37,889 bases of DNA from positions 1 to 37,889 of the forward strand of contig CAYRYT010000001.1 of assembly GCA_964428625.1 (NCBI GenBank), given 5' to 3'. The stretch comes from an uncultured Oscillospiraceae bacterium. Lineage in GTDB: Bacteria > Bacillota > Clostridia > Oscillospirales > Oscillospiraceae. This document shows, one piece after another, positions 2,505 to 29,942 of the stretch; the stretch's first letter is position 1; every line of letters begins with the position of its first letter. The notes under the pieces were generated by a model. The model was not told the DNA's origin and made no database searches. It saw nothing but the letters and a program-made list of their open reading frames with translations. Made by a program: the position numbers and the translations under genes.

Positions 2505-2738
2505 TCAGATGCTGAATGCAACCAGCACAACATCCTTGCCCAGCTTGGCAGAGAGCAGCTTCTCCAGCTCGGTGATCTTGGCCAGTGCTTCCCCATCCTG
2601 GTCCAGCTCAGCGAACTTCACAGGGCTGTAGGCCACCAGGGAAACATCCTTGCCGGTCTTGGCGGTGAGCTCCTGCTCCAGCGCGGTGATAGAATTCAGC
2701 AGATCTTCCCGGCCGTTGAGATTGGTAAAAGTATTCAT
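2505..2738 (-). CDS. 77-aa hypothetical protein made of two tandem ~36-aa repeats
   Basis: AAGGAG RBS and TTGCTT-17-TGn-TATAAT promoter (2798-2770). Repeats ITALEQELTAKTGKDVSLVAYS and ITELEKLLSAKLGKDVVLVAFS. Confidence 0.8.
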   Translation of the reverse strand: MNTFTNLNGREDLLNSITALEQELTAKTGKDVSLVAYSPVKFAELDQDGEALAKITELEKLLSAKLGKDVVLVAFSI

Positions 2739-2809
2739 GGTTTTTCTCCTTATATCTTGGGATTCGGTGATTATAGCATACAGCAGGAAAAAAAGCAACC
2801 AAAAAACCG

Positions 2810-2838
2810 TTGCCATTCGGCACTTTTTGTGGTAGGAT
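2810..2838 (+). promoter_or_regulatory. promoter of the cob operon leader
   Basis: TTGCCA (2810-2815), 17 nt, TGn-TAGGAT (2833-2838), immediately before the riboswitch. Confidence 0.6.
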
Positions 2839-2857
2839 AGGGCTAAAAAACGCATCT

Positions 2858-2994
2858 GCCACGGTATCCTTTGGAATGGGGAAATCTCAACGGTACCAAG
2901 CCGCCGTATCGGGCAGGCAGCCGTGCGTCCCATTGGGTAATTCCCGAGAAGGGCCGCACATGAAGGCGCCCGGAGTCGGAATACAGGCCGTGAC
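2858..2994 (+). ncRNA. cobalamin riboswitch (compact variant)
   Basis: GGAA-TGGGG-AAAT-CTCA, GCCGCCGTA, CCATTGGG...CCGAGAAGG and B12-box-like AGTCGGAATAC. P1 CACGG/CCGTG. Lies upstream of cob genes with a terminator downstream. Confidence 0.8.
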
Positions 2995-3047
2995 GGAAAG
3001 CCCGGGACTCTTGGGGGGCTGTCCTAGGCGGCTTTGCCATGCCCTTT

Positions 3048-3070
3048 GCCCTCGAAAGAGGGCTTTTTTT
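3048..3070 (+). terminator. riboswitch attenuator terminator
   Basis: GCCCTC-GAAA-GAGGGC-TTTTTTT in the leader. Confidence 0.85.
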
Positions 3071-3087
3071 CTTTGTCAGGAGGGATT

Positions 3088-3840
3088 ATGCGAAAAGAAC
3101 AATGCTACTTATCCACCATCGATCCCCAGGCCCATACCCTGGCCGCCGCCCATGGACTGGGATTGGAGATTGCCGAATTCTGCACGGCTTGGAATATGGA
3201 TCGGGAGCTTCCCGCCACCGACCGGCTGGTGCGGGAGAAGATCGCCGCCGTTCCCCGGCGGCTCCTCCACGGGCCCTTCAATGAGCTTTTTCCCTGCGCC
3301 ATCGATCCCAAAGCCCGGGAGCTGGCTGCCTTCCGCTACCGCCAGGCCCTGAACCTGGCCCGGGAATACGGTGGAGAAAAGGTGATCCTCCACGGCGGTT
3401 TCCACCCCCGGAGCTATTATCCCCAATGGTATATCCAGGAATCCATCGCCTTCTGGCGGGAGTTTCTGGTTCAGGAACCTCCGGTGACCATTGTGCTGGA
3501 AAATGTTATGGAGGAAGAGGCCGGCTGGCTGGTGGAGATCGTCCGGGCCGTGGATCACCCCAAACTGCGGCTGTGCCTGGATGTGGGTCATGTCAATGCC
3601 TATTCCCGGGAGCCGGTGATGGCATGGCTGACCCAATGGGCACCCTGGCTGGATCATTTCCACATCCACAACAACGACGGCTCCTGGGACACCCATGATG
3701 CTCCGGGCCGGGGAACCATTCCCATGGTTTCCCTTCTGACCCGGGCCGGGGAGCTGTGCCCCCAGGCAATCTTCACTCTGGAACTGCCCAATGCCCAGGC
3801 GGGAATTCAATGGATGGAGGAACAAGCCCTATGGAATTAA
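3088..3840 (+). CDS. AP endonuclease 2 / xylose-isomerase-like TIM-barrel metalloenzyme; candidate CbiR-like cobamide-remodelling phosphodiesterase
   Basis: LHGPF, ILHGG, LENV, CLDVGH, HFHIHNNDGSWDTH and TLE metal motifs. GGAGG RBS. First gene after a B12 riboswitch and overlaps the cobT start. The fold is well supported; the CbiR function is inferred. Confidence 0.8.
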   Translation: MRKEQCYLSTIDPQAHTLAAAHGLGLEIAEFCTAWNMDRELPATDRLVREKIAAVPRRLLHGPFNELFPCAIDPKARELAAFRYRQALNLAREYGGEKVILHGGFHPRSYYPQWYIQESIAFWREFLVQEPPVTIVLENVMEEEAGWLVEIVRAVDHPKLRLCLDVGHVNAYSREPVMAWLTQWAPWLDHFHIHNNDGSWDTHDAPGRGTIPMVSLLTRAGELCPQAIFTLELPNAQAGIQWMEEQALWN

Positions 3841-4919
3841 CGGAAATGCTGGCGCAGATCCGCCCTCTGGATCAGGCGGCCATGGCTGCCGCCCGGGCAC
3901 GCCAGGCCCAGCTGGCCAAACCCCCGGGAAGTCTGGGACGGCTGGAAGATCTGTCAGTCCAGCTGGCGGGCATCACGGGAAATGTCCACAACACTATGGC
4001 CCGGCAGCATCTGCTGGTCTTTGCCGCAGACAACGGGGTCGTGGCCGAAGGGGTGTCCAGTTCCCCCCAGTCCGTGACCCTGAGCCAAAGCGTCAACCTG
4101 ACCCGGGCCAAAACCGGTGCTTCCACCCTCTGCGCCCATTTTGGTGCCGGCATCACCGTCTGCGATGTGGGCATCAACGGTCAGCTCCCCCCCTGCCCCG
4201 TTTTGAACCGGAAAATCGCCTGGGGGACAGGGAACATTGCCCAGGGCCCGGCCATGACCCGGGACCAGGCCATCCGGGCCATCACCACCGGCTTTCAGCT
4301 GGCGGTGGATACCCCGGCGGATGTGCTGGGAATCGGAGAAATGGGCATCGGCAACACCACCACCTCCGCGGCGGTGCTGGCTGTTCTGCTGGACGCGGAG
4401 GTGGAGGCCGTCACCGGTCGGGGCGGCGGCATCACGGACGAGAGCTTCCGGCGAAAAAAAGCCGTCATTGCCCAAGCCATCCGGCAAAACCGCCCGGATC
4501 CCGGGGATGCGGTGGATGTGCTGGCCAAGGTGGGCGGCTTCGACCTGGCGGCCATGTGCGGTGCCTTCCTGGGTGCCGCGGCCAGCCATCGGCCCGTGGT
4601 CATCGACGGGCTGATCTCCGCCGCCGCGGCCCTGTGCGCCGCTCGACTGTGTCCGGGGGTGGAGGGCTATTTTGTGGCCAGCCACGCCTCGTTTGAGATT
4701 GGTTACCGCCTTGCCATGGAGGCGCTGGGACTGCAGCCCCTTTTCGACCTGGGTATGCGCCTGGGTGAGGGTAGCGGCTGTCCCCTGGCCTTCCAGGTGC
4801 TGGAGGCCGCCTGTGCCGTGATCAACGACATGGCCACCTTCGACCAGGCAGGCATCGATGACGGCTATCTGGAGGAAATTCGCCAGGGGGACAAATTCAC
4901 CGTGGAGGGCCGGCCATGA
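3831..4919 (+). CDS. cobT: nicotinate-nucleotide--dimethylbenzimidazole phosphoribosyltransferase
   Basis: LAKPPGSLGRLE, VFAADNGV, GEMGIGNTT, IDGLIS and LGMRLGEGSG motifs. Confidence 0.96.
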   Translation: MELTEMLAQIRPLDQAAMAAARARQAQLAKPPGSLGRLEDLSVQLAGITGNVHNTMARQHLLVFAADNGVVAEGVSSSPQSVTLSQSVNLTRAKTGASTLCAHFGAGITVCDVGINGQLPPCPVLNRKIAWGTGNIAQGPAMTRDQAIRAITTGFQLAVDTPADVLGIGEMGIGNTTTSAAVLAVLLDAEVEAVTGRGGGITDESFRRKKAVIAQAIRQNRPDPGDAVDVLAKVGGFDLAAMCGAFLGAAASHRPVVIDGLISAAAALCAARLCPGVEGYFVASHASFEIGYRLAMEALGLQPLFDLGMRLGEGSGCPLAFQVLEAACAVINDMATFDQAGIDDGYLEEIRQGDKFTVEGRP

Positions 4920-5452
4920 CTATTTTTATTTCCGGCGGTGCCAAAAACGGCAAATCCACCCTGGCTCAGGATCTGACCCTGGCCCTGGCCGGGGGCGGAA
5001 CGCGGTACTATGTGGCCACCATGATCTCCACTGGCCCGGAGGATGACGCGCGGATCCTGCGGCACATTGCCGACCGGGCGGGCATGGGCTTTCAGACCCT
5101 GGAATGCCCCAGGCACATTCTCCCCCTGGCGGAGCTTCCCGGGACCTTTCTGGTGGACAGTGTCACCGCTCTGATGCAAAATGCCCTGTTCCCCGTGGAG
5201 GCAGATTACGAAATGGATCTGGAGGCGGCCCGGCGGTGCGGCGATGAGCTGGTTGCCTTTGCGAAGCGGGTCCCCAACGCCGTATTTGTCAGCGACTACA
5301 TCGGCTCCGACGGGGAACGCTACGCTCCCACCACGGAGACCTACCGCCGCCTCCTGGCCCGGGTGGACCGCCGTCTGGCGGCGGTGTGCGATACGGTGAT
5401 CGAGGTCTGCGCAGGGCAAGCCACGGTATTTAAGGGAGAGCTGAAACTATGA
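4916..5452 (+). CDS. cobU: adenosylcobinamide kinase / cobinamide-phosphate guanylyltransferase
   Basis: P-loop GGAKNGKS, YVATM, RIxxHxxxR with the guanylylation His, VDSVT. Confidence 0.9.
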   Translation: MTIFISGGAKNGKSTLAQDLTLALAGGGTRYYVATMISTGPEDDARILRHIADRAGMGFQTLECPRHILPLAELPGTFLVDSVTALMQNALFPVEADYEMDLEAARRCGDELVAFAKRVPNAVFVSDYIGSDGERYAPTTETYRRLLARVDRRLAAVCDTVIEVCAGQATVFKGELKL

Positions 5453-6183
5453 AGCAATATTTCCACGCCTTTTGTATGTGCCAGAGTATGTTCTGTGCCC
5501 TGCCGGCACCCCAGGTCTGGGACGAGGAGGCCCGGGGGAAGATGCTCCTGTTCCTGCCCCTGGTGGGGCTGGAAATGGGCCTGGGCTGGGCCGGTATGAG
5601 CTGGCTGTGCCAATTTCTGGCTCTTCCCCGGCTGATATCCGCCCTGGTGCTGGCCCTTTACCCCTACCTGGTCACCGGCTACCTCCACCTGGACGGCTTT
5701 ATGGATGTGACCGATGCCGTGCGGTCCTGGCGGGATCTGGACCGTCGCCGGGAGATCCTGAAGGATTCCCATGTGGGCAGCTTTGCGGTGATTTCCCTGG
5801 CCCTGGTGTGCCTGGCCCAGTTTGCCTGTGCCGCCAGCCTCCCCCAGGGGAAGCACACCATGCTGATCCTCATTCCGGCGGTGAGCCGGTGCTGCTCCGC
5901 CCTGGCGGTGACGGTGCTGAAGCCCATGGCCACCAGCCAATACGCCGCCACCACCCGTCCCAGAGGCCATGTGCCGGTTTTGCTGGGGCTTCTGGCCCTG
6001 TTCCTGACCCTGGGCTTCCTGCTGGGGCGGTGGGACGGTCTGGCCCTGATCGGATGTCTGGTGGGCTACGCCCTGGCCCTGGGCCGGGGATACCGCTCCC
6101 TGGAAGGAATGAACGGCGACATCGCAGGCTACGCCCTGACCATCGGGGAGCTGTGTGCCCTGGCGGTTTACGCATTGGTATAA
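5449..6183 (+). CDS. cobS: cobalamin synthase (adenosylcobinamide-GDP ribazoletransferase)
   Basis: TGYLHLDGFMDVTDA, ILKDSHVGSFA and GMNGDIAG motifs; hydrophobic membrane protein. Confidence 0.95.
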   Translation: MKQYFHAFCMCQSMFCALPAPQVWDEEARGKMLLFLPLVGLEMGLGWAGMSWLCQFLALPRLISALVLALYPYLVTGYLHLDGFMDVTDAVRSWRDLDRRREILKDSHVGSFAVISLALVCLAQFACAASLPQGKHTMLILIPAVSRCCSALAVTVLKPMATSQYAATTRPRGHVPVLLGLLALFLTLGFLLGRWDGLALIGCLVGYALALGRGYRSLEGMNGDIAGYALTIGELCALAVYALV

Positions 6184-6193
6184 GGAGGATACT

Positions 6194-6556
6194 ATGATTT
6201 TGATTATCGGCGGTGCTTACCAGGGAAAGCTGGATTTCGCCCGGGAGGCTTTCTCCCTGACGGAGGAAGATATCTTCCCCTGTCACGGCCCGGAAATTGA
6301 TTTTTCCCGAAAATGTATCTGCCAGCTGGAGGAATTCACCCGCCGCGCCCAGGATCCCCTGGCCTACTTTCAGGCGCATCGGGCAGACTGGCAGGGCAGC
6401 ATTCTGATCCTGGAGGATATTTTCTGCGGGGTGGTGCCCATGGGCCGGGAGAACCGGGCCTGGCGGCAAAAGACCGGCCGGTTGGCCCAGTATCTCAGTC
6501 GGGAGGCCACCCAGGTCAGCCGGATCTTCTGCGGATTGGAGCAGCGGCTGAAATGA
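6194..6556 (+). CDS. short CobU-like P-loop protein
   Basis: AAGGAGG RBS; IIGGAYQGK and DIFCGVVP...RAWR..TGRL...A..V.RIFCG pattern of the short clostridial CobU paralogue. Confidence 0.85.
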   Translation: MILIIGGAYQGKLDFAREAFSLTEEDIFPCHGPEIDFSRKCICQLEEFTRRAQDPLAYFQAHRADWQGSILILEDIFCGVVPMGRENRAWRQKTGRLAQYLSREATQVSRIFCGLEQRLK

Positions 6557-7092
6557 GTATCCTTCTGATCCGCCATGGAATGACCCCGGCCAACGAATCC
6601 CACCTCTACTGCGGCAGCACGGACCTGCCCCTGTCCCCCAGAGGGAAATCCCAGTTGGAGGCTCTGTCCTATCCCCTTCCCTCGGGCCCGTTTTTCACCA
6701 GCGGAATGCGCCGGGCCAACGAAACCCTGGCGATTCTCTTCGGACCCGTTGCCTACACCGTTGATCCCCGGTTCCGGGAGGTGGATTTCGGCATTTTCGA
6801 AATGAAAAGCTATGCCCAGCTGAAGGACGACCCGGCCTACCAGACCTGGCTCACCGGGGATAACGAGGCAAATATCCCGCCCCAGGGGGAAAGCGGTGCC
6901 CAAATGACTGCCCGGGCCCTGGATGCCTTCCACCAATTGCCAGCGGATGCGGTGGTGGTGACCCACGGCGGTGTCATCGCCGCCATTATGGCGGCTCTTT
7001 TCCCCGACGAGGGAAAGAACCGTTATCAATGGCAGCCCCAGCCGGGCCACGGTTACCGGCTGGAACCGGGAAAATACAGCCAAATTCCATAA
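6553..7092 (+). CDS. cobC: histidine phosphatase, probable alpha-ribazole/adenosylcobalamin phosphatase
   Basis: RHG, EVDFGIFE, GES and VTHGGVI motifs; last gene of the cob operon. Confidence 0.85.
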   Translation: MSILLIRHGMTPANESHLYCGSTDLPLSPRGKSQLEALSYPLPSGPFFTSGMRRANETLAILFGPVAYTVDPRFREVDFGIFEMKSYAQLKDDPAYQTWLTGDNEANIPPQGESGAQMTARALDAFHQLPADAVVVTHGGVIAAIMAALFPDEGKNRYQWQPQPGHGYRLEPGKYSQIP

Positions 7093-7098
7093 AATCCG

Positions 7099-7127
7099 TT
7101 GACCTTTCCAAGTCTGTGTGCTATACT
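7099..7127 (+). promoter_or_regulatory. sigma70 promoter for the tandem riboswitch leader
   Basis: TTGACC, 17 nt, TGn-TATACT. Confidence 0.75.
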
Positions 7128-7141
7128 ATACGAAACGGAAT

Positions 7142-7341
7142 ATGGCACAGTGGCAATGCGACCGTAACGGCCTTCCGGCCAGGCGCAACGCTTAAAAAGG
7201 GAATGGGGTACAAGCCCCGCATGAACCAATACCGTGGGCATCGAGAGACTTCTTCGTTGGCGAAAGCCAGTCATTGGGGGCACCTGAGAAGGCAGAAGAA
7301 GATCTCGCCGGAGATGCGAGTCGGGAGAACTACTGCGCCGT
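7142..7341 (+). ncRNA. cobalamin riboswitch (first of tandem pair)
   Basis: AAAAGGGAA-TGGGG-TACAAG-CCCCG, ATACCGTG, GTCATTGGG...CCTGAGAAGG and GAGTCGGGAGAACT. P1 GGCACAGTGG/CTACTGCGCC. Confidence 0.85.
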
Positions 7342-7356
7342 GCAATATGCATCGAG

Positions 7357-7414
7357 AATGGTTACGAGGATATTGCGCCCTTTTTGGGGCGTATCCCGTA
7401 ACCATTTTTTGTTT
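7357..7414 (+). terminator. attenuator terminator of riboswitch 1
   Basis: AATGGTTACG...CGTAACCATT stem with inner GCGCCC/GGGCGT pairing, followed by a T-tract. Confidence 0.8.
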
Positions 7415-7454
7415 ATCCCCGCCGGGGAACCGGCGGTATCCTATATCCGGCTTA

Positions 7455-7673
7455 TTCGTGGCATATGCGCGACCTGCCCCCGGGCAGACACGCATAGGGC
7501 ATTCAGCTGAACAAGGGAACCCGGTGGAAATCCGGGACACGGCGGGCATGGCCCGCGGTGCTGTCAGCGTGGAGTCGGCCTCCTTTCTGGGAAACCAGGT
7601 CATTGGGCGCAAGCCTGAGAAGGCGGGAGGCGGCATTGGGAAACCTGAACACGCAAGTCAGAAGACCTACGAA
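7455..7673 (+). ncRNA. cobalamin riboswitch (second of tandem pair)
   Basis: AAGGGAA-CCCGG-TGGAAAT-CCGGG, GCTGT, GTCATTGGG...CCTGAGAAGG and B12 box AAGTCAGAAGACCT. P1 TTCGTGG/CTACGAA. Confidence 0.9.
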
Positions 7674-7786
7674 CCGCGTTAACTGCGGCCTAAGCGACAC
7701 ACCGCCCGGCGGTGTGAGCCGGCTAACTCCTTTTTCCGCCGTCAGGCGTGTGATACAGCAAACATATTCTAGAAGGTTTCTTAACT

Positions 7787-10700
7787 ATGAAAAAACGCAT
7801 TCTCTCCGCCCTTCTTGCGCTGGTGTTGGTATTCTCCGTGATGCCCGCCAGTGTTTTTGCGGAGAACATTCACGAAAATCAAGTCCGAGTGATCGTCGAA
7901 AATACTACCTTCTCCGTAGAGGACGGTGCCCCCTGGGACGGAACTCTGGTGGACACCTGGGTAGACATCGACGAAGACGCAACCATGATGACCTGCATCG
8001 TGGATGCCCTGGCCCAGTCCGACTATGAGCAGACCGGTGCGGAGTACAACTACATCTCCGAAATCAACGGTCTGAGCGAGTTTGACGGCGGCGGAATGTC
8101 CGGCTGGATGGGCACCCTGAACGATTGGTTCACCAACGAAGGCTTCGGTGCCTTCACCGTTGCCGACGGCAAACTTCTGGCCGGTGATGAGATCCGGATC
8201 ATGTACACCTGTAACGGCTTCGGTGCCGACCTGGGCGGCAGCTGGGGTAACAGCGACAAGACCGTCAAGGCTGTGGAATTCAGTGCGGGTACTCTGGATA
8301 CCGACTTTGATAAGGATACCCACGATTATACCCTCACCGTCCCCGCCGGTACCACCGAGCTGACGGTTCGCCCCACCGCCTCCAACAAGAACTACATGGT
8401 TCGCACCAAGACCGATGCCGACGATACCTGGTATCGCTGCAACGATCTGATCCCCGTGGAGATGGGCACCGTGATCACCGTTGTGTGCGGCGATTCCAGC
8501 TGGCCCTCCATGAACGACAATTCCGTTCCCGCTGAGGAGTACCGCTTCACCGTGGCCCTGGAGGGCAAGTCCGACAGCGAGCTGATCGCAGAGGTCACCG
8601 CCCGCATCGATGCCATTGGGGAAGTCACCCTGACCAGCGAGAATGCCATTCTGGCCGCCCGGGCCGCCTATGAGGCCCTGGAGCCGGAGCTGCAGGCACA
8701 GGTTACCAATTATGAAACCCTGACCGCCGCCGAAGCCGCTCTGGCCCAGCTGAAGGCCGCCAACGAATCCGTTTCCGCCCAGTGGCCCAGCTTCCGCGGC
8801 AATGCCGCCAACAACGGCGTGACCAACGCCGCCACCCCTGTGGATCTCGACACCGTGACCCTGAAGTGGAACCACTGCTTCAAGGAAAATGCCAGCGACT
8901 GGTCCACCGCCCCCAGCGTGCAGATCATCGTGGACGATGCCCTGGTGGTCATGTGCAAGACCAGCCTTTACAAGGTTGACCTGGAGACCGGCGAGATCCT
9001 CGCCACCGGCACCATGTCCGCCGCCCCCAGCTACGGCTACACTCCTCCCATTTACGCTGAGGGTATGATCATCTGCCCCCTGGGCAATGGCACCATCCAG
9101 GCCTTTGACGCGGAGACCCTGGAGTCCCTGTGGGTCTACCACGACGCTCTGGGCGGCCAGGCCCTGAGCCCCATCTCCTACTCCGGCGGCTACATCTACA
9201 CCGGCTTCTGGAACGGCGAGACCGCCGATGCCAACTTCGTCTGCGTTGCCGTCTACGACGAGGATCCCGCCTCCGCTGAGGAGGAGAAGACTGCTGTCTG
9301 GACCCACACCCAGGCCGGCGGTTATTACTGGGCCGGCTCCGTGGTCGTTGGCGATACCGTGATCGTCGGCTGCGACGATGGCAACAATGGCACCACCGGC
9401 GACTCCACCCTGACCGGCTTCAACAAGTTCTCCGGCAAGATCATCAGCCAGCTCACCCTGACCGGCATGGGCGACCAGCGCAGCTCCCTGTGCTATGCCA
9501 ACGGCTACCTGTACTTCACCACCAAGGGCGGCTACACCTGCAGGGTCGAAATCAGCGGCAACGGCCAGCTCACCGACCTGGTTTCCTTCCGCCCCGACGC
9601 AACCACCGTTCAGAGCACCTGCACCCCCGTCGTGTACGGCGGCTATGTCTACCTCGCCCTGTCCGAGAAGTCCGGCACCAGCTGGAAGGATCCCACCTTC
9701 TACACCGTCTATGTTCTGGATGCCGATACCCTGGCCGTTGCCGGTACTGCCGACATGAGCACCTACGGCTATCCCCAGTGTTCCCTGCTCCTGACCACCG
9801 CATACCAGGCCAGCGGCAACCTCTACCTGTACGCCACCTATAACAAGACCCCCGGCGGTATCGCCATGATCACCGTCCCCACCGATTCCCTCAGCGTGGA
9901 GTCCCCCGCTACCCTGACCGTGGATCACCTGTACCAGGCAGAAGGCTTTGAGCAGTACTGCATTTGCAGCGTGATCTGCGATGACAACGGCACCCTGTAC
10001 TACAAGAACGACTCCGGCAATGTCTTTGCCATCGCCACCGATCCCGTGAAGGAAGTGGAGGCCAAAATCGATGCCATTGGCGAAGTCACCCTGGACTCCC
10101 GGAAAGCCATTACCGAGGCCCGGAAGGCATACGACGCCCTGACCGAGGCTCAGCAGAGCCAGGTAACCAATGTCGATACCCTCCAGGCTGCTGAGGAGAC
10201 CTTCTCCCAACTTCTCGCCCAGTATTATAAGGATGTCTACACCACCACCGGCAATTATATGTCCACTCTGGGTACCCCCGGCGTTGGCTCCATCGGCGGT
10301 GAGTGGATGGTCCTGGGCCTGTCCCGTGCCGATCTGACTGTTCCCGGCAGCGATGCCTACTACGAAGCCGTTGTGGCGTATGTCCAGTCCCATATCAACG
10401 ACAAGGGGCAGCTCCACCGTGCCAAGTCCACGGATAACTCCCGGATCATTCTGGCCCTCACCGCTATGGGCAAGGATGTCACCGATGTGGGCGGCTTCAA
10501 CCTGCTGAACGGTCTGAACGATCTGACCTGCATCCAGAAGCAGGGCATCAACGGCCCCATCTGGGCCCTGATTGCCCTGGACAGCCACAATTATGAGATC
10601 CCTGCCGGCGATGTCACCCGGGAAAAGCTGATTGAGGTCATCCTCAAGGCCCAGCTCCCCGACGGCGGTTGGACTCTCTCCGGCAGCGTCGCTGACCCGG

Positions 10701-11401
10701 ATATGACCGCCATGGCTCTCCAGTCCCTGGCTCCCTACTACAGCAAGCTCGACCAGGTCAAGGCCGCTTGCGATGCCGGTATCCAGGCACTGAGCGACAT
10801 TCAGCAGCCCTCCGGCGGCTTCAGCACCTGGGGCTCCGAGACCAGTGAATCCACCGCCCAGGTCATCGTGGCCCTTACCGCCCTGGGTATCGATCCCACC
10901 ACCGACGAGCGTTTCATCGTTGACGGACGGAATCCTGTGGATGCCCTTTGCGACTACTATGTCCAGGGCGGCGGCTTCAAGCATCTGCTCGATGCCGAGC
11001 TCAATGGCATGGCCACGGAGCAGGGATTCTATGCTATGGTCTCCTACTTCCGGTTCCTGGAAGGCAAGACCGCCCTGTACAACATGAACGATGTGGTTCT
11101 GGATATTCCCGAGGTTCCCGAGATCCCCGACCAGCCTGACCAGCCTGACCAGCCTGAGAACCCCGATCAGCCCGAGAATCCTGATCAGCCTGAAACCCCC
11201 GATCAGCCCGAGAACCCCGACAAGCCCGAGAATCCTGAGAACCCCACTGAGAAGCCCGAGGATCCTACCGACAAGCCCGTGGAGAAGCCCACCACCCCCG
11301 CCACCGGCGACTACGGCATCACCCTGTGGGCCATGACTCTGATTCTGTGCGCCCTGGGCGCCACTGCCCTGATCGGCAACCGTAAGAAGTTCCAGTTCTA
11401 A
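7787..11401 (+). CDS. 1204-aa sortase-anchored surface protein: DUF4430 (transcobalamin-like beta domain), cadherin-like sandwich, PQQ-type beta-propeller, prenyltransferase-like alpha-barrel, Pro-rich stalk
   Basis: Signal peptide; YISEINGL.EFD.G..SGWM...N.WF (DUF4430); WPSFRG propeller start; QW-like repeats (AQLPDGGW, IQQPSGGF); PDQPEN stalk; TPATG + TM + RKKF tail. B12 binding is inferred from the riboswitch context. Confidence 0.85.
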   Translation: MKKRILSALLALVLVFSVMPASVFAENIHENQVRVIVENTTFSVEDGAPWDGTLVDTWVDIDEDATMMTCIVDALAQSDYEQTGAEYNYISEINGLSEFDGGGMSGWMGTLNDWFTNEGFGAFTVADGKLLAGDEIRIMYTCNGFGADLGGSWGNSDKTVKAVEFSAGTLDTDFDKDTHDYTLTVPAGTTELTVRPTASNKNYMVRTKTDADDTWYRCNDLIPVEMGTVITVVCGDSSWPSMNDNSVPAEEYRFTVALEGKSDSELIAEVTARIDAIGEVTLTSENAILAARAAYEALEPELQAQVTNYETLTAAEAALAQLKAANESVSAQWPSFRGNAANNGVTNAATPVDLDTVTLKWNHCFKENASDWSTAPSVQIIVDDALVVMCKTSLYKVDLETGEILATGTMSAAPSYGYTPPIYAEGMIICPLGNGTIQAFDAETLESLWVYHDALGGQALSPISYSGGYIYTGFWNGETADANFVCVAVYDEDPASAEEEKTAVWTHTQAGGYYWAGSVVVGDTVIVGCDDGNNGTTGDSTLTGFNKFSGKIISQLTLTGMGDQRSSLCYANGYLYFTTKGGYTCRVEISGNGQLTDLVSFRPDATTVQSTCTPVVYGGYVYLALSEKSGTSWKDPTFYTVYVLDADTLAVAGTADMSTYGYPQCSLLLTTAYQASGNLYLYATYNKTPGGIAMITVPTDSLSVESPATLTVDHLYQAEGFEQYCICSVICDDNGTLYYKNDSGNVFAIATDPVKEVEAKIDAIGEVTLDSRKAITEARKAYDALTEAQQSQVTNVDTLQAAEETFSQLLAQYYKDVYTTTGNYMSTLGTPGVGSIGGEWMVLGLSRADLTVPGSDAYYEAVVAYVQSHINDKGQLHRAKSTDNSRIILALTAMGKDVTDVGGFNLLNGLNDLTCIQKQGINGPIWALIALDSHNYEIPAGDVTREKLIEVILKAQLPDGGWTLSGSVADPDMTAMALQSLAPYYSKLDQVKAACDAGIQALSDIQQPSGGFSTWGSETSESTAQVIVALTALGIDPTTDERFIVDGRNPVDALCDYYVQGGGFKHLLDAELNGMATEQGFYAMVSYFRFLEGKTALYNMNDVVLDIPEVPEIPDQPDQPDQPENPDQPENPDQPETPDQPENPDKPENPENPTEKPEDPTDKPVEKPTTPATGDYGITLWAMTLILCALGATALIGNRKKFQF
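11105..11295 (+). repeat. coding tandem repeats (PDQ/PEN) forming a cell-wall-spanning stalk
   Basis: Repeated GACCAGCCT and GATCAGCCCGAGAA units encoding PDQPDQPDQPENPDQPEN... Confidence 0.85.
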
Positions 11402-11423
11402 ATTTCCTCTTTCCCCAGATCCA

Positions 11424-11474
11424 AGGGGCCGGGTCATGCCGGGTATGGCTTTGCCATAACAGCACCCGGCCCCT
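11424..11474 (+). other. intra-operon GC-rich stem-loop without U-tract
   Basis: AGGGGCCGGGT...ACCCGGCCCCT outer stem and TATGGC-ttt-GCCATA inner stem. Confidence 0.7.
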
Positions 11475-11500
11475 ACCATATTCCTTCCGGAGATGATCAC

Positions 11501-12799
11501 ATGAAGAAAAAACACATTGCCAATCTTATTATGGCCCTGCTGATGGTGCTCATCGCCGGGGTCGCTTTGTTCACCCTGGGCCATTTCCTGGGTTGGTACG
11601 ATACGCCCAGCGTCGACACGGCGCTGATGCGCAGCCCCCGGGGCCTGGTGACCCTGGAGCGGGACGGCGCATCCTTCTATGTCCAGGCAGACACCCCCCT
11701 GCGTGCCGGGGACCGCATTGTCTGCAATGCCGGTGCCACGGTGGAGCTGACCCTGGGCGACCACTACATCGTCCTGGGGCAGAATGCCCAGGCCACTGTC
11801 ACCCAGCCCGCCACCGCCGGCTTCTCCCTGGCGCTGGAAAAAGGCGAAGCCTTTGTCCATGCGGGCCCGGCCATCACCCTCTCCTTCCAGGAGCAGGTAG
11901 TTACTTTTGAAGATTCCGTTGCCACTGTTAGCGTCCGCAGCGGCGCATCCAGTGTCAGCGTTTACTACGGCAGTGCCGCCGATGCCCAAGCAGGCCAGAT
12001 CCGGGAATGGATCGGCCAGGAGACCTCGGTCCGCAACTGTCCGATCTCCAGCCTCAATGATTTTGCCATCAACCAGATCCGCCGGGCCAACCAGGGGCTG
12101 ACCCTGTGCTTCACCGACAGCCAGCTGGCCCAGCTGGAGGCGGACCGCCTGGCCCAAATGCAGGCTCCTGCCACTACCATTCCCCAGGAGACCCAGCCCC
12201 CGGAAACCACCGCGTCGGTGGAGACCACTACCCCCGATCAGACACCGGAGAGCAAGCCCCGGCCCACCGACCCCGTAGCCACGGAGCCCAAGGCCACAGA
12301 CCCCGACGAGACCACACCCCCGCCTGCGACGGAGCCCAAGCCCACAGCGCCCCCGGAAACCACACCTCCCACCACCCAGCCGGATACGGCCCTGACCTGC
12401 ACCATCACCATTCGCTGTGACACCATCCTGGACAACTGGGATGACCTGGACCCTGCCAAGGCCCCCTATGTCCCGGAAAGCGGCTGCATTCTCGCCCCGG
12501 TGACGGTGACCTTCACCGAAGGGGAGACGGTATTCCATGTTCTCCAGCGAGTCTGCGAAACCTATGGCATCCAGCTGGAATACAGCTGGACCCCCATGTA
12601 TGACAGCTATTACATCGAGGGGATCAACCACCTATATGAGTTCGACTGCGGCTTTGAGTCCGGCTGGATGTATAAGGTCAACGGTTGGTTCCCCAATTAC
12701 GGCTGCTCGGCCTACACCCTCACCGGCGGGGAGACGATCGTCTGGTGCTACACCTGCAAGGGACTTGGCGCCGATGTGGGCAGCGTCTGGATGGGGTAA
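11501..12799 (+). CDS. membrane-anchored protein: FecR-like domain, Pro/Thr stalk, C-terminal DUF4430
   Basis: N-terminal TM helix; LRAGDRIVC..GATVELTLGD..IVLGQN...LEKGEAFV...VSVYYGS (FecR-like); P/T linker; YYIEGINHLYEFDCGFESGWMYKVNGWFPNYG (DUF4430). Confidence 0.85.
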   Translation: MKKKHIANLIMALLMVLIAGVALFTLGHFLGWYDTPSVDTALMRSPRGLVTLERDGASFYVQADTPLRAGDRIVCNAGATVELTLGDHYIVLGQNAQATVTQPATAGFSLALEKGEAFVHAGPAITLSFQEQVVTFEDSVATVSVRSGASSVSVYYGSAADAQAGQIREWIGQETSVRNCPISSLNDFAINQIRRANQGLTLCFTDSQLAQLEADRLAQMQAPATTIPQETQPPETTASVETTTPDQTPESKPRPTDPVATEPKATDPDETTPPPATEPKPTAPPETTPPTTQPDTALTCTITIRCDTILDNWDDLDPAKAPYVPESGCILAPVTVTFTEGETVFHVLQRVCETYGIQLEYSWTPMYDSYYIEGINHLYEFDCGFESGWMYKVNGWFPNYGCSAYTLTGGETIVWCYTCKGLGADVGSVWMG

Positions 12800-12801
12800 G
12801 T

Positions 12802-13683
12802 ATGGAACGAGACGCCTTTTCCAAGCAGCACCCGGCGGTGAACTTCCTGTTCTTTGTGGGGGCCATCGGCTCCGCCATGCTGATCCAGCACCCGGCCTAT
12901 CTGCTGGCCGGGCTGGTGGGCAGCGGTGCCTACTACCTGCTGCTCCACGGCCCAAAGGGTTGGCGGCTGATCGCCGGAATGGTTCCCTTGTTCCTTCTGG
13001 TCACCTTTGCCAATCCCCTGCTGAACACCTACGGCCAGACGGTGCTGTTTACTTACTTTGGCCGCCCCTATACCCTGGAGGCCCTGTACTACGGCGGAGC
13101 CATCGCCGCGGTTTTCGTGGAAATGCTGCTGTGGTTCGGCTGCTATAATGCCGTCCTCACCAGCGACAAATTCACCTGCCTCTTCGGCAATCTCATCCCC
13201 GCCCTGTCCCTGCTGTTGGTGATGGTGCTGCGGCTGATCCCCAGCTTCCTGCGAAAAGCCCAGCAGATCTCCGGTGCCAGAAGCTCCATCGGAAAGGGCA
13301 CGGTGGAACAGGACACCCTGGAGGAAAAGCTCACCGAGGGGCTGACGGTGCTGGGCACCCTCACCTCCTGGGCCCTGGAGGGCAGCATCGTCACCGCTGA
13401 CTCCATGCGCAGCCGGGGCTATGGCAGTGGCAAGCACACCAGCTTCATGCGCTACACCATGACCGCCTCCGACTGGGCCCTGATGGCCGCCCAGGTTCTT
13501 CTGCTGGCGCTCACGCTCTTCCTGGGGGATACCACCGCAACCTACACCCCGGATTTCTATTTGGCACCGGTCACCGGTCGCTTTGCAATTGGCCTGGCCG
13601 CTTACTGGGCCTTTCTGCTGATTCCCACTGCACTACACTTGAAGGAGGCCGTTCAATGGCACATTTCCATCTCCAGAATCTGA
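12802..13683 (+). CDS. ecfT: ECF transporter transmembrane T component (1)
   Basis: HPAVNF start, multiple TM segments, VLRLIP, GAR and ADSMRSRGY coupling motifs. Confidence 0.9.
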   Translation: MERDAFSKQHPAVNFLFFVGAIGSAMLIQHPAYLLAGLVGSGAYYLLLHGPKGWRLIAGMVPLFLLVTFANPLLNTYGQTVLFTYFGRPYTLEALYYGGAIAAVFVEMLLWFGCYNAVLTSDKFTCLFGNLIPALSLLLVMVLRLIPSFLRKAQQISGARSSIGKGTVEQDTLEEKLTEGLTVLGTLTSWALEGSIVTADSMRSRGYGSGKHTSFMRYTMTASDWALMAAQVLLLALTLFLGDTTATYTPDFYLAPVTGRFAIGLAAYWAFLLIPTALHLKEAVQWHISISRI

Positions 13684-15308
13684 CTTTTTCCTACGCCAGC
13701 GCCCAGGGCAAGCGCTCTCTGGATGGCGTGACCCTGACCATCCAGCCGGGGGATTTCCTGGTCCTCTGCGGCCGCTCCGGCAGCGGCAAGAGCACCCTCC
13801 TGCGGCATCTGAAAACCGTCCTGACCCCCAACGGCAAGCATTCCGGCGAAATCCTTTTTAATGGCGTACCCCTGAAGGATGTCCCGGACCGGGAGCAGGC
13901 GGCTAAGATTGGCTTCGTTATGCAAAACCCCGACGATCAGATCGTCACGGACAAGGTCTGGCACGAGCTGGCCTTCGGTTTGGAGAGCCTGGGCTGTGAC
14001 CAGACCACCATGCGCACGAGAGTTGCGGAAATGGCCTGCTATTTCGGCATTCAGGACTGGTTCCACCGGGATGTGGCGACTCTGTCCGGCGGCCAGAAGC
14101 AGCTGCTGAACCTGGCCTCCATCATGGCCATGCAGCCGGAGGTGCTGATTCTGGATGAGCCCACCAGCCAGCTGGATCCCATTGCGGCCTCCGACTTTCT
14201 GAATACCGTGCGCAAGATCAACACGGAGCTGGGCACCACCGTCATCATCACCGAGCATCGCCTGGAGGATATCTTCCCCTACGCCGACCGGGCTGTGGTG
14301 ATGGAAAGCGGCAAGATCATTGCCGATGATGTGCCCGCCAAGGTTGGCCAGCTCCTGTTCCAGCAGCACAACCCCATGTTCACCGCCATGCCCACCCCCA
14401 TCCGGGTGTTCTACGGTGCCGATTGCACCGGGGAAAGCCCCCTCACCGTCCGGCAGGGCCGCAACTGGCTCAGCAAGGAATTCCCGACGGAGGTAGCCAT
14501 CAAGGCTGAGCCGGCTCCCAAGCCGGAGGAGATCGAGCATCCCGCCTTGAGTCTGAAGGAGCTGTGGTTCCGCTATGAGAAGGACAGCGCCGATATTCTC
14601 CGGGGCGTGTCCGCCGATATCCCCGCCGCCAGTATTTATGCCATCCTGGGTGGCAACGGTGCAGGCAAATCCACCACCCTGAAGGCCATTTCCAGCATTT
14701 GCAAGCCCTACCGGGGCAAGGTGAAGCTCTTCGGAAAGCCGGTGGAAAAATACAAATCCAAGGAGCTGTTCCGGGGCTGCCTTGCCATGCTGCCCCAGGA
14801 TCCCAAGAGCCTGTTTGTGAAAAAAACCGTCCGGGAAGATCTGGAGGAAATGACTAAGGACAGCCAAAAAATCACAGAAACCGCCGATTTGTGTCAGATC
14901 ACGGAGCTTCTGGACAGTCATCCCTATGACTTGTCCGGCGGCGAGCAGCAGCGGGCAGCCCTTGCCAAGGTACTGCTGACAGAGCCGAAGATCCTCCTGC
15001 TGGACGAGCCTACCAAGGGCATCGACAGCTTCTTCAAGGAGACCTTTGCCCAGATCCTCATGGATCTGAAAAAGCGGGGCATTACCGTCGTGATGGTGTC
15101 CCACGATGTGGAGTTCTGCGCCCGGTATGCCGATCTGGTGTCCATGTTCTTCGACGGCCAGATCCTCACCACCGACAACCCCAAGCGCTTCTTCGGCAAC
15201 AACAGCTTCTATACCACCGCCGCCCACCGGATGAGCCGCCATCGCTTCCAGATGGCAGTGACGGCGGAGGATGTCATCGATCTGTACAAGAAAAACAAGG
15301 AGGCCTGA
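13656..15308 (+). CDS. ECF transporter fused double ATPase (A-A')
   Basis: Two ABC domains: GRSGSGKS / QNPDDQ / LSGGQKQ / LDEPT and GGNGAGKS / LSGGEQQR / LDEPT. Confidence 0.93.
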   Translation: MAHFHLQNLTFSYASAQGKRSLDGVTLTIQPGDFLVLCGRSGSGKSTLLRHLKTVLTPNGKHSGEILFNGVPLKDVPDREQAAKIGFVMQNPDDQIVTDKVWHELAFGLESLGCDQTTMRTRVAEMACYFGIQDWFHRDVATLSGGQKQLLNLASIMAMQPEVLILDEPTSQLDPIAASDFLNTVRKINTELGTTVIITEHRLEDIFPYADRAVVMESGKIIADDVPAKVGQLLFQQHNPMFTAMPTPIRVFYGADCTGESPLTVRQGRNWLSKEFPTEVAIKAEPAPKPEEIEHPALSLKELWFRYEKDSADILRGVSADIPAASIYAILGGNGAGKSTTLKAISSICKPYRGKVKLFGKPVEKYKSKELFRGCLAMLPQDPKSLFVKKTVREDLEEMTKDSQKITETADLCQITELLDSHPYDLSGGEQQRAALAKVLLTEPKILLLDEPTKGIDSFFKETFAQILMDLKKRGITVVMVSHDVEFCARYADLVSMFFDGQILTTDNPKRFFGNNSFYTTAAHRMSRHRFQMAVTAEDVIDLYKKNKEA

Positions 15309-15311
15309 CCC

Positions 15312-16013
15312 ATGAAACGATCCCATATTGCCATGCTGGTAGATTTCCTGGTGGTGATCCCCCTTACCCTGTATTTCGGCCTGCGGCTCCCCGGCCGGGG
15401 CTATTACATCACCAGCACCCTGGTCATTGTGGAGCTGATGATCCCCTTCCTCCTGGCCTTTGAAAGCCGGAAGCCCCAGGCCCGGGAGCTGGTGGTCATC
15501 GCCGTACTCTCGGCTTTGGCCGTTGCCGCCCGGGTGGTCATCCCCATTCCCCATTTCAAGGCTATCTTCGCTGTCATTATGCTCTCCGGCATTGCCTTTG
15601 GCCCGGAGGCTGGCTTTATGGTGGGTGCCATCTCCGCCCTGGCCAGCAACTTCTTCTATGGCCAGAGTGCCAACACCCCCTGGCAGATGTTCGCCTATGG
15701 TGCCGGCGGTATGCTGGCGGGTTTCCTGTTCGCCAAGGGGCAGTTGCCCCGGAAGCCCCTGGTTCTGGGTATTTTCGGCTTTTTCGCCACAGTGCTCTTC
15801 GTCGGCCCCCTGCTGGACACCGCCTCCGTCTTCCTGGCCCTGCCTGTGGTGTCCTGGGATAGGGCGCTGCCTCTGTTCATTTCCGGTTTTCCGGTGAATG
15901 TGAGCCAGGGCATCAGCACCTTCCTGACCATGCTCCTCTTTGGCAATCCCCTGCTGGAAAAGCTGGACCGGGTAAAAACCCAGTACGGAATGGGAGAAGA
16001 CGATGGGCTTTGA
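15312..16013 (+). CDS. ECF transporter S component, probably cobalamin-specific (CbrT-like)
   Basis: Hydrophobic; ELVVIAVLSALAVAAR (AxxxA motif), FGPEAGFMVGA, SNFFYGQ..NTPWQM. Substrate is inferred from the riboswitches. Confidence 0.85.
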   Translation: MKRSHIAMLVDFLVVIPLTLYFGLRLPGRGYYITSTLVIVELMIPFLLAFESRKPQARELVVIAVLSALAVAARVVIPIPHFKAIFAVIMLSGIAFGPEAGFMVGAISALASNFFYGQSANTPWQMFAYGAGGMLAGFLFAKGQLPRKPLVLGIFGFFATVLFVGPLLDTASVFLALPVVSWDRALPLFISGFPVNVSQGISTFLTMLLFGNPLLEKLDRVKTQYGMGEDDGL

Positions 16014-16911
16014 AAGCTGCCACCCTGCGGTGAATTTCTTCTTCTTCACCCTGGTGCTCTTTGCCGGCGGCACATTTACCCATCCCGTCTTTCTGGCCAT
16101 CGGCTGGGTCTGCGCCTTTGCCTACAGCGTCAAGCGGGGCGGCTGGAAGGTACTCCTCTTCGATCTGCTCCTGTTGCCCCTGGCGGCCCTCTACGCCGTG
16201 CATTATGCCTGCTGCAACCATTTCGGTGTCACCGTCTGGCAGCAGAATTTCATCGGCAATAATCTGACGGTGGAAAGCGTGGTCTACGGTCTGGTGGAGG
16301 GGCTGCGCATCGGGGTGGTGTGTATGTGGTGCAGCAGTCTGTTCCGGGTCTTTTCCTCGGACAAGGTGGTGTATCTCTTCGGGCGGATCAGCCCCCGGTT
16401 GTCCCTGTTCCTCACCATTCTCCTGCGCCTTGTTCCCCGGCTGAAGCTGGAGGCCCAGCGCATCAACCTGGCCCAGCAGGGCATTGGCCGGGGTGTCAAT
16501 CAGGGAAATATCCTTCAGCGTCTGCGGAACTGCCTGCGAATCTTCTCCATGCTCATCACCTGGCTGATCCAGGCCCTAGCCCTGGAAGCAGACTCCATGA
16601 AAAGCCGGGGCAGCAACCTCCGGGGCAGAACAGCCTTTTCCATTTACCGTTTCGACAACCGGGACCGGGCCTTTGTGCTGGTCATGTTCACCGCCACCAT
16701 GTTCACCGCACTGGCCATCGCCCTGGGTGCCTGCCACATGGTCTACAATCCCCGGATCCTGTGGAAGCCTCTTACCTGGTTCAACACCCTCACCGCCCTG
16801 GGTTACGCCTTCGTGGCCCTCATGCCCCTGGGCCAGGAGCTCTGGATCGCCTGGCGATTCTCCCAAGCCCGCAGAAACAGCGCTCCCACAGGAGCGCCGG
16901 AGCCTGTATAG
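16003..16911 (+). CDS. ecfT: ECF transporter transmembrane T component (2)
   Basis: HPAVNF start, LLRLVP and ADSMKSRG motifs; paralogous to 12802-13683. Confidence 0.88.
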   Translation: MGFESCHPAVNFFFFTLVLFAGGTFTHPVFLAIGWVCAFAYSVKRGGWKVLLFDLLLLPLAALYAVHYACCNHFGVTVWQQNFIGNNLTVESVVYGLVEGLRIGVVCMWCSSLFRVFSSDKVVYLFGRISPRLSLFLTILLRLVPRLKLEAQRINLAQQGIGRGVNQGNILQRLRNCLRIFSMLITWLIQALALEADSMKSRGSNLRGRTAFSIYRFDNRDRAFVLVMFTATMFTALAIALGACHMVYNPRILWKPLTWFNTLTALGYAFVALMPLGQELWIAWRFSQARRNSAPTGAPEPV

Positions 16912-16953: not shown

Positions 16954-17028
16954 GGTGGACTTGAGGAGATTCGAACTCCCGACCCCCACAATGCGAATGT
17001 GGTGCGCTCCCAACTGCGCTACAAGCCC
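16953..17028 (-). tRNA. tRNA-Ala(CGC)
   Basis: 76-nt cloverleaf GGGCTTG...CAAGTCC-ACCA; anticodon loop TT-CGC-AT; G3:U70 alanine identity pair; TTCGAAT T-loop. Confidence 0.97.
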
Positions 17029-28244: not shown

Positions 28245-29513
28245 TTATGTACGGAATTCGAACGGCGTCATGTCGAATGTTGCAAAATAATCATTGGGAG
28301 TCTCCGCCCGGCGGATCATCTGGAAGGATCCATCGGGGTGGAGCAGCACCTCCGCGGAGCGGAGCTTGCCATTGTAGTTGTAACCCATGGCGAAGCCGTG
28401 GGCACCGGTATCGTGGATGGCCACCATGTCCCCGATCTCAATGGCGGGGAGGCTGCGCTCCACGGCGAACTTGTCGTTGTTCTCGCACAGGCCACCGGTG
28501 ACATCGTACACATGGTCCAGGATGGCATCCTCCTTGCCCAGGACGGTGATGTGGTGGTAAGCGCCGTACATAGCGGGGCGCATCAGGTTGGCAGCACAGG
28601 CATCCAGGCCCACATACTCCCGGTAGATATGCTTCTGGTGAAGCACCGTGGCAATGAGATGGCCATAGGGTGCCAGCATAAACCGGCCCAGCTCCGTAAA
28701 GATCGCCACATCATCCATCCCCACGGGGGTCAGGATAGCCTCGTACTTCTGGCGCACGCCCTCACCGATGGCGGCAATGTCGCACTTGGGCTGCTCCGGC
28801 CGGTAATCCACGCCCACGCCGCCGGAGAGGTTGACGAAGGCAATGTGGGCGCCGGTGGCATTGTGCAGCCGCACCGCCAGACGGAACAGGATGGCCGCCA
28901 GCTCGGGATAGTAGCCGTTCTGTGTGGTGTTGGAGGCCAGGAAGGCATGGATGCCAAAGTGCTTCACCCCCAGCTTCTGGAGGCGGTTGATGGCACCGGC
29001 CATCTGGTCCTCGGTCATGCCGTACTTGGCATCCCCGGGCATATCCATGATGGTATTGCCCAGGCTGAAGGATCCGCCGGGATTGTAGCGCAGGCACACG
29101 GTATCGGGCATATTCCCCCGGGCCATCCGCTCCAGGAACTCCACATGGGTCGCGTCGTCCAGGTTGATGTAGGCCCCCAGCTCCAGGGCCTTCTCCATAT
29201 CCTGCTGAGGGGTCACATTGGAGGAGAACATGATCTCCCGGCCGGTGATCCCGGCAGCCTCGGACATGACCAGCTCCGTATAGCTGGAGCAGTCGCAGCC
29301 GCAGCCCTCCTGATGGAGGATGTCCAGAATGTAGGGGTTGGGAGTCGCCTTCACGGCAAAATACTCCCGGAAGCCCTTGTTCCAGGCAAAGGCCCGGTTC
29401 AGCTCCCGGGCGTTGGCCCGGATGCCGGCCTCGTCATAGATATGGAAGGGGGTGGGGATCTGTGCAGCGATTTCCCTGGCCTTGTCCAGGGTCACAAAGG
29501 GTGTTTTTTTCAT
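28245..29513 (-). CDS. lysA: diaminopimelate decarboxylase
   Basis: TPFHIYDE, FAVKATPN (PLP Lys), KYG, NLSGG.G, ELGRF, GGLCENND and GAHGFAMGYNYN motifs; lysine riboswitch upstream. Confidence 0.95.
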   Translation of the reverse strand: MKKTPFVTLDKAREIAAQIPTPFHIYDEAGIRANARELNRAFAWNKGFREYFAVKATPNPYILDILHQEGCGCDCSSYTELVMSEAAGITGREIMFSSNVTPQQDMEKALELGAYINLDDATHVEFLERMARGNMPDTVCLRYNPGGSFSLGNTIMDMPGDAKYGMTEDQMAGAINRLQKLGVKHFGIHAFLASNTTQNGYYPELAAILFRLAVRLHNATGAHIAFVNLSGGVGVDYRPEQPKCDIAAIGEGVRQKYEAILTPVGMDDVAIFTELGRFMLAPYGHLIATVLHQKHIYREYVGLDACAANLMRPAMYGAYHHITVLGKEDAILDHVYDVTGGLCENNDKFAVERSLPAIEIGDMVAIHDTGAHGFAMGYNYNGKLRSAEVLLHPDGSFQMIRRAETPNDYFATFDMTPFEFRT

Positions 29514-29546
29514 AAGAAGCCTCTTTCGGTAATCAAAAAATGTGAT

Positions 29547-29579
29547 AAAAATAGCCCTGCGCCAAAATGAGCGCAGGGC
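29547..29579 (-). terminator. lysine riboswitch attenuator
   Basis: Minus strand GCCCTGCGC-tcattttg-GCGCAGGGC-TATTTTT. Confidence 0.85.
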
Positions 29580-29598
29580 GAATGTTGCCAATTCGTCC

Positions 29599-29766
29599 CC
29601 AAAACAGCGCTCCATCGAAACTCGATGACAGTCCCACGCATATTCTGCGGGGGACCAGGAAAATCTTCCTTGGCAGAAAGAAGCTCCTTCGGCGGCGTGC
29701 CCTTTCCCGCTCCGGCAATTGCCTGATCCGAAGCGATACTCTTGCAAACCGCGACCTCAGTCTTGG
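29599..29766 (-). ncRNA. lysine riboswitch (L-box)
   Basis: Minus strand GAGGTCGCG...AGAGTA...GGGAAAGGG...CGCCGAA...CTGGTCC...AATA...GGACTGTCA...TGGAGCGCT. P1 CCAAGAC/GTTTTGG. TTGACA-17-TAAAAT promoter at 29806-29778. Confidence 0.93.
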
Positions 29767-29942
29767 TACATCATTAGATTTTATACGATAGAATACCGTT
29801 TGTCAATATCTTTTCCCACTCTACCCAGAGTAGAATGGTGAAAATTTTTCAGTAGAGAAAAAATTCCCCAGGGAGGTACCATTTTTCCGTCCCCTGTGGT
29901 ATAATCCCCTCATCGATTTTACCACGGAAGGCGGAATGCTTT

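Follow-up and report, generated by a model that had tools for sequence, protein, structure and literature searches.

What does a gene that databases call 'sugar phosphate isomerase/epimerase' or 'TIM barrel protein' do at the head of a cobamide-assembly operon? The question is raised by contig CAYRYT010000001.1 of an uncultured Oscillospiraceae bacterium (GCA_964428625.1), a 37,889-nt stretch referred to here as the window; the source genome is 78% complete, which is the scope of its genome-wide absences given below. The open reading frame (ORF) for the triose-phosphate-isomerase (TIM)-barrel protein starts with ATG behind an AGGAGG (3078-3083), and its stop overlaps the ATG of cobT by 10 nt. 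The gene order continues with cobT, cobU, cobS, a short second cobU and a cobC-like phosphatase gene, mostly through ATGA overlaps (Table 1). An initial annotation had placed the TIM gene first behind a B12 riboswitch and overlapping cobT. This is borne out, the evidence for the riboswitch coming from relatives of the leader; Rfam misses the window copy. The cobT-U-S-C genes that it listed are present, with an overlooked 120-aa second CobU between cobS and cobC, and its expectation that the product would be labeled a sugar-phosphate isomerase agrees with the database names.

We consider it rather likely, judging from sequence and context, that the TIM gene product is a CbiR-like phosphodiesterase giving cobinamide-phosphate for CobU, CobS, CobT and CobC. 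CbiR of Akkermansia muciniphila (Amuc_1679, NF041277) hydrolyses adenosylcobalamin to adenosylcobinamide-phosphate and alpha-ribazole and is oxygen-sensitive (Mok et al. 2020, PMC7733943). In the proposed scheme, the energy-coupling factor (ECF)/DUF4430 operon downstream would capture and import cobamides. The TIM protein, a putative trinuclear-metal phosphodiesterase, would cut off their nucleotide tail at the ribose-3'-O-P bond, as CbiR does; endonuclease-IV chemistry predicts cleavage at this bond. The products would be cobinamide-phosphate and an alpha-riboside. The CobU pair would make cobinamide-GDP, CobT would activate a free base, CobS would join the two and CobC would remove the phosphate, the downstream enzymes thereby rebuilding the cobamide with the lower base that this bacterium uses. 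Entry at cobinamide-phosphate would explain carriers without ring synthesis and without CbiB, the enzyme that the CbiZ route needs. What is observed directly is the layout of the operon, the kinship of its leader to cobalamin riboswitches, the TIM family with nine invariant His/Asp/Glu residues that align with those of E. coli endonuclease IV, and a repeated association with cob and ECF genes.

Which forms of B12 can be shared among gut microbes depends on remodelling. To our knowledge, genome-based predictions of remodelling count CbiZ, CbiR and some CobS only. Remodelling has been observed in human gut samples, as discussed in PMC7733943, and the clade described here is a candidate agent for it. 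The published CbiR assay could be applied directly to a clade protein, which makes a clear and cheap test possible.

Fold, metal site and ancestry of the TIM-barrel protein

The protein matches Pfam PF01261 (E 1.6e-22). Its AlphaFold model, computed from 104 rows (87 of 150 representatives, 16 of 120 close matches and the query), has a pLDDT of 97.9 and forms an eight-stranded barrel matching 3ayv. The nearest solved structures are TTHB071 of Thermus thermophilus HB8 (PDB 3ayt, 3ayv; E 2.8e-9) and MJ1311 (PDB 3wqo; E 4.2e-13), at 23-26% identity. TTHB071 is also the best structural match (Z 27.1, root-mean-square deviation 2.6 Å over 233 residues), followed by MJ1311 (Z 24.7). TTHB071 shares the same nine ligand residues and belongs to the same wider branch; unlike the TIM gene, its gene lies outside any cob operon, on pTT27, as the partner of surE and some 5 kb away from cobQ. 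The predicted metal ligands H61, H102, E138, D165, H168, H192, D201, H203 and E232 align, in this order, with H69, H109, E145, D179, H182, H216, D229, H231 and E261 of E. coli Nfo, which we take to be its three-metal ligands. Each of the nine positions holds one and the same residue throughout the 38 clade rows (38 of 38). Eight of them align directly with six CbiR-model rows, in which the D201 column is shifted. H194 is common to all six of these rows and is Asn in Nfo and TTHB071; residues conserved specifically in the clade include C32, E66, Y110, W114, H190 and N195. The nine-ligand site points to phosphoester hydrolysis and not to sugar isomerisation. An argument from the isoelectric point against DNA binding was dropped, as E. 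coli Nfo is equally acidic.

The clade resembles CbiR in its PF01261 barrel, in its His, Asp and Glu positions, in being encoded beside cobT, cobS or cobU and often beside transporters, and in the reaction predicted for it. The search with the NCBIfam CbiR model gave proteins above its cut-off, including P0289, which NCBI names CbiR (267.6 bits) and which is the only named CbiR in our trees. Alignment of the TIM protein to P0289 with hhalign had a probability of 97.8 at 22% identity. Unlike CbiR, the TIM protein falls below the model cut-off, as do ten relatives scoring 37-66 bits, and the operon here lacks cbiB and cobDQ and carries a mini-CobU and a divergent riboswitch. Two quick maximum-likelihood trees were built on 88 rows apiece, with 8 rows exchanged for 8 others in the second; both placed the clade among TTHB071-like relatives (Shimodaira-Hasegawa-like approximate likelihood-ratio support 91 twice), with the CbiR-model rows, mostly outlying members and not including the Akkermansia protein, on another branch. 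By an approximately unbiased test, a tree uniting the clade with CbiR could not be rejected (delta lnL 35.6, p=0.111). Independent recruitment, one option in the initial annotation, thus has the two trees in its favor, and this test together with the B12 neighborhoods of some distant relatives (below) on the other side; an origin independent of CbiR is favored but not established. Plasmids and viral contigs, searched with P0289, gave no further true CbiR proteins. One protein above the CbiR cut-off (154 bits; L177, G155:C1) lies between genes for a sugar-binding protein and a PHP-like protein; since no cob gene occurs within 1.5 kb of it, the NCBIfam CbiR model may over-call.

The clade, which is widespread and so far without a family name (the ESM Atlas gave only generic 'sugar phosphate isomerase/epimerase' clusters), most likely works like CbiR but is not classed as CbiR. 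A broader proposal is tentative and on balance somewhat doubtful: the clade may be the core of a second family of phosphodiesterases that cut cobamides, one that originated separately from CbiR in the TTHB071-like branch, replaces CbiZ-plus-CbiB in gut Clostridia without ring synthesis, reaches well beyond Oscillospiraceae and is a main remodelling route of the gut. CbiZ (PF01955) likewise starts remodelling by removing the lower loop and occurs in cobS-positive non-producers of the same family, but it differs in fold and in the bond cut. A term search of Table S1 of PMC7733943 showed three Firmicutes rows, none cob-adjacent, and no Clostridia, Oscillospiraceae, Ruminococcaceae or Lachnospiraceae names. 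Our literature search for the clade, which left subscription journals mostly uncovered, yielded only the CbiR paper, papers mentioning CbiR and one unrelated preprint; PMC3084264 and PMC3634412 were drawn on as well.

Gene neighborhoods and distribution

A search of GTDB genomes gave 105 relatives, of which we compared the best 80; close homologues are recorded under Oscillospiraceae, Faecousia or Clostridia, and the source of many is the gut of animals or humans. B12 genes accompany 76 of these 80 close loci: 66 have a cob gene (two in opposite orientation), 10 have B12-type ECF genes only, and four have neither. These homologues are therefore not mostly unlinked to cob genes, a possibility that the initial annotation had asked to be checked. 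In half of the ECF-only loci (5/10) the stretch ends within 220 bp 3' of the gene. The TIM gene lies directly 5' of cobT in most loci; other arrangements are TIM-cobS-cobC, TIM-cobU-cobS, divergence from cobT, and a place inside or at the end of an ECF operon. The same ECF/DUF4430 genes stand beside or around it in many genomes, which supports the capture-import-remodel locus envisaged in the initial annotation. Two clusters (P0170, P0293) contain TIM-CobT proteins that are fused cleanly and in frame. A further TIM-CobT protein, P0272, from the 'longer' homologue search is left out of this count because it resembles a frameshift read-through, and a TIM-RecQ protein (P0132) was set aside as a single record. 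The short second CobU recurs in 61 of the 80 loci. The long CobU keeps the RIxxH loop of E. coli CobU and the short one an EVGxGxVP-like motif; because the motifs are divided between them in this complementary way, a split-function pair is suggested.

Outside the family, a class sample of 300 genomes (one unscored) yielded 8 further matches, five of them with B12 context. The contexts were ECF-cobT-U-S-C-TIM, in which the gene ends the cob operon of another family, ECF-DUF4430-TIM under a riboswitch, divergence from a DUF4430 protein, and TIM-cobQ-cbiB; one gene is directly preceded by a 103-bit cobalamin riboswitch. Among 18 distant phylum-level relatives (25-35% identity), B12 neighbors were found in four, which rules out that the distant relatives are wholly unlinked to B12. 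Since such links reappear in distant sub-branches, the wider family may have an old role with corrinoids, or recruitment may have happened repeatedly. One of these regions (L121, G095:C1:680100-690700) has the TIM relative divergent from a btuF-like gene and near cbiA and an ECF S component, and also holds an AIRS-fold protein and cobU under two cobalamin riboswitches; the AIRS-fold protein and S component are presumably cblT/cblS-like.

The distribution was scored in 150 evenly sampled genomes of the family, which are mutually related and mostly metagenome-assembled, so that absences mean 'not found'. With carriers defined by a clade match at E<1e-40 (two weaker matches excluded), 20 of the 150 genomes carry the gene, 16 of them next to cob genes, two at the end of an ECF operon and two unlinked; two of the carrier genomes are also among the 80 close loci. 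If the proposed function is right, these genomes of a common gut family would hold a CbiR-like enzyme hidden as a 'sugar isomerase', and many apparent cobinamide salvagers would be reclassified as remodellers. cobS is present in every one of the 20 carriers, and the 87 cobS-negative genomes include no carrier. The gene was found in 9 of 13 cobS-positive genomes without cbiB, versus 11 of 50 with cbiB. Three genera have one carrier and one non-carrier among their cobS-positive genomes (G420/G512, G463/G535, G544/G480), and each time the carrier is the one without cbiB. Among the 19 cobS-positive genomes without cbiD, 10 have the TIM gene only (nine without cbiB), four have cbiZ only (all with cbiB), none has both and five have neither. 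This pattern of TIM gene, cbiZ and cbiB in non-producers is the one expected if the enzyme delivers cobinamide-phosphate directly to CobU. The putative remodelling role put forward in the initial annotation is well supported by gene context, fusion and distribution. The initial annotation had noted that cbiZ and cbiB are not in the window; these two, cobQ and cbiD were not found across the whole source genome either. No aminotransferase was seen among the 30 window ORFs scanned, and no search was aimed specifically at cobD. One metatranscriptome (0.05 word share) gave short pieces only, with no bearing on expression.

Competing functions

Several results weigh against a CbiR-like function. The comparison with NCBI's own model does not support a CbiR orthologue, which the initial annotation had allowed for: the TIM protein scores 35.9 bits on NF041277, for which the cut-off is 105, and scores alike on the FrlC epimerase model NF007360 (35.2 bits, cut-off 305). 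Weak CbiR-model matches also occur in 11 of 14 control genomes and are therefore a marker of the superfamily only. The nearest solved relative, TTHB071, is one that we take to be a nucleotide (GTP) phosphatase. The gene was not found in 43 of 63 cobS-positive genomes, including 4 of the 13 without cbiB, so that the operon can exist without it, as in plain cobinamide salvage, and 10 of 44 ring-making genomes carry it as well, three of them together with cbiZ. The Fisher p-values for the distribution (0.002, 4e-9) overstate the association because the genomes are related. Unrelated neighborhoods surround two of the 20 carriers in the family, as well as one relative at 40% identity, which lies between feoB and lspA, and 14 of the 18 distant relatives have no B12 context. 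None of a MetH-type B12-binding domain, NrdJ, methylmalonyl-CoA mutase, QueG and CdhD was found in the source genome. A corrinoid need is indicated on its contig C46, where acsB is followed by a cobalamin riboswitch and then acsV (G000:C46:6861-11328); an acetyl-CoA-synthase/methyltransferase system is the probable user of the corrinoid. Finally, the CbiR-like function leaves unexplained the arrangement in genome G420 (94% complete), which has TIM-cobS-cobC and in which cobT and cobU were not found. This minimal operon (L147, G420:C8:14100-28900) possibly reflects a route in which CobS remodels directly, or else a gap in the assembly; cbiB and cbiZ were also not found in G420.

The alternative that survives best, which we still regard as unlikely, is a phosphatase or recycling enzyme of nucleotide-loop assembly that acts on pathway intermediates and not on finished cobamides. 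It could dephosphorylate alpha-ribazole-phosphate or cobamide-5'-phosphate, hydrolyse cobinamide-GDP, or cleave cobamides at the phosphate's other side, yielding cobinamide. Such an enzyme would fit the presumed activity of TTHB071, the company of cobS and cobC in G420, the operons without cobC (Vescimonas fastidiosa, for example) and the ring producers that carry the gene. Yet a cobC homologue is present in 60 of the 80 close loci, which makes a second phosphatase look redundant; the gene also occurs in ECF uptake operons away from cob genes (L010, L013, L024, L026, L217), a placement that fits an imported substrate, and the complementary pattern with cbiZ and cbiB is not expected of a phosphatase.

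We hold it to be improbable that the TIM enzyme feeds CobT, for instance by hydrolysing nicotinate adenine dinucleotide (NaAD) or NAD to the mononucleotide donor, or by freeing lower-ligand bases. The usual position directly 5' of cobT, with overlap here and fusion in two clusters, is what this idea would predict, but the gene stays with cobU/cobS or ECF genes where cobT lies elsewhere (G529, G546, G483) or was not found (G420). Least probable of all, and in our estimate very unlikely, is that the protein acts as a general phosphoesterase, AP endonuclease or sugar epimerase and stands next to cob genes through inherited gene order, with no function in common: the database names and the distant relatives without B12 neighbors agree with it, but the link persists over several gene orders and families and under the gene's own riboswitch, cobS-negative genomes have no carriers, a separate nfo homologue is present on contig C7 of the source genome, the FrlC score is far below its cut-off, and no NCBIfam Nfo model is among the matches of the protein at E<=1e-3.

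Riboswitch leader, uptake operon and other window features

The leader of the TIM gene is conserved 5' of the same gene in three other loci, and a search of metagenomes with a 36-base pattern taken from it gave 22 copies. These precede an ecfT homologue (9), a DUF4430 protein (6), the TIM gene (5) or other genes (2). Rfam RF00174 gave no match to the window leader even at E<=1 (2700-7900 scanned; gathering score 31.5 bits). Scanned with the same model, 15 of the 22 copies gave six that pass the gathering score at the motif, five below it and four without a match. Because 6 of 15 copies pass and 20 of 22 precede B12-type genes, we assign the leader to the kin of cobalamin riboswitches. On a profile built without it, from a set gathered with the window-derived pattern, the window leader scores 100.6 bits. 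In an alignment of 26 rows, 91.5% of cells are paired, versus 30-52% in slid controls, and helices outside the search pattern show two-sided, covarying changes. P1 is paired in 59% of cells, no more; in P4, P5 and the kissing loop there is (almost) no variation, which makes them uninformative for covariation. The predicted kissing loop pairs L5 CCAAG (2896-2900) with an invariant CUUGG (within 3008-3016), the invariant CUCUUGGGG of the leader element being complementary to its own L5 loop. Single-sequence folding was uninformative (z -1.1). Terminator-like sites in the scanned region are not commoner than in shuffles; terminator-like hairpins stand at the corresponding position in most aligned copies.

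The leader shares with RF00174 the order of P4 T-loop, P5, P6, B12-box arm and J6/3-like motifs, the kissing-loop complement and the position upstream of B12 genes. It differs in lacking the P2 arm and in an L5 of UACCAAG instead of a C-rich loop. In our reading it is a divergent cobalamin riboswitch that would work through the terminator at 3048-3071, to which bound cobamide would switch it. If so, Rfam scans would undercount the B12 regulons of these bacteria. In L161, L165 and L174 (variant set L155-L176) the P2-less variant stands back-to-back with canonical riboswitches.

Table 1. Positions of the operon, its leader and the neighboring uptake locus in the window
Feature	Position	Strand	Basis
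Sigma-70-like promoter TTGCCA-17-TAGGAT	2810..2838	+	Consensus match only
Divergent cobalamin riboswitch without P2 arm	2858..3017	+	Conserved copies, covariation; Rfam misses window copy
Intrinsic terminator hairpin and U run just 5' of the ribosome-binding site, predicted expression platform	3048..3071	+	Prediction; similar hairpins in most aligned copies
PF01261 TIM-barrel metalloenzyme, 250 aa, candidate cobamide phosphodiesterase	3088..3840	+	Pfam, NCBIfam, structure model, alignment
cobT, nicotinate-nucleotide--dimethylbenzimidazole phosphoribosyltransferase	3831..4919	+	Above NCBIfam cut-offs
CobU-family protein, P-loop and RIxxH motif kept, without EVGxGIVP motif	4916..5452	+	Domain match, motifs
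cobS, cobalamin-5'-phosphate synthase family	5449..6183	+	Domain match, NCBIfam
Short second CobU-family protein, 120 aa, P-loop and CGVVP motif kept, without His loop	6194..6556	+	Domain match, motifs
cobC-like histidine phosphatase	6553..7092	+	Best NCBIfam match TIGR03162, below its cut-off
Cobalamin riboswitch, sub-threshold, first of tandem pair	7145..7350	+	Rfam 25.8 bits, E 0.0011
Cobalamin riboswitch	7514..7668	+	Rfam 54.2 bits
Predicted corrinoid capture/uptake operon	7787..16911	+	Domain matches

A second promoter-like site, two cobalamin riboswitches and the DUF4430/ECF operon follow 3' of cobC. The uptake operon encodes, in order, a 1204-aa secreted protein, a DUF4430 protein, an ecfT-like protein, an ECF ATPase, an ECF S component and a second ecfT-like protein. 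DUF4430 is described in PMC4350170 as the C-terminal domain of transcobalamin-like proteins. The secreted protein (7787-11401) combines DUF4430, PQQ-like and alpha-alpha toroid domains and is reminiscent of a transcobalamin-like B12 capture protein. A cluster of three riboswitches in L028 (13063-13969) may be compared with the tandem pair of the window (7145-7668). Next to one of the unlinked clade members, an ApmA-like aminocyclitol acetyltransferase gene (L150:7736-8554; 438 bits, cut-off 550) lies directly 5'. Elsewhere the window has two tRNA genes (16956-17028, 31104-31176), a lysine riboswitch before a lysA-like decarboxylase gene (28245-29768) and Type I-C-like cas genes (Csd1, Cas7, Cas4, Cas1; 33105-37854).

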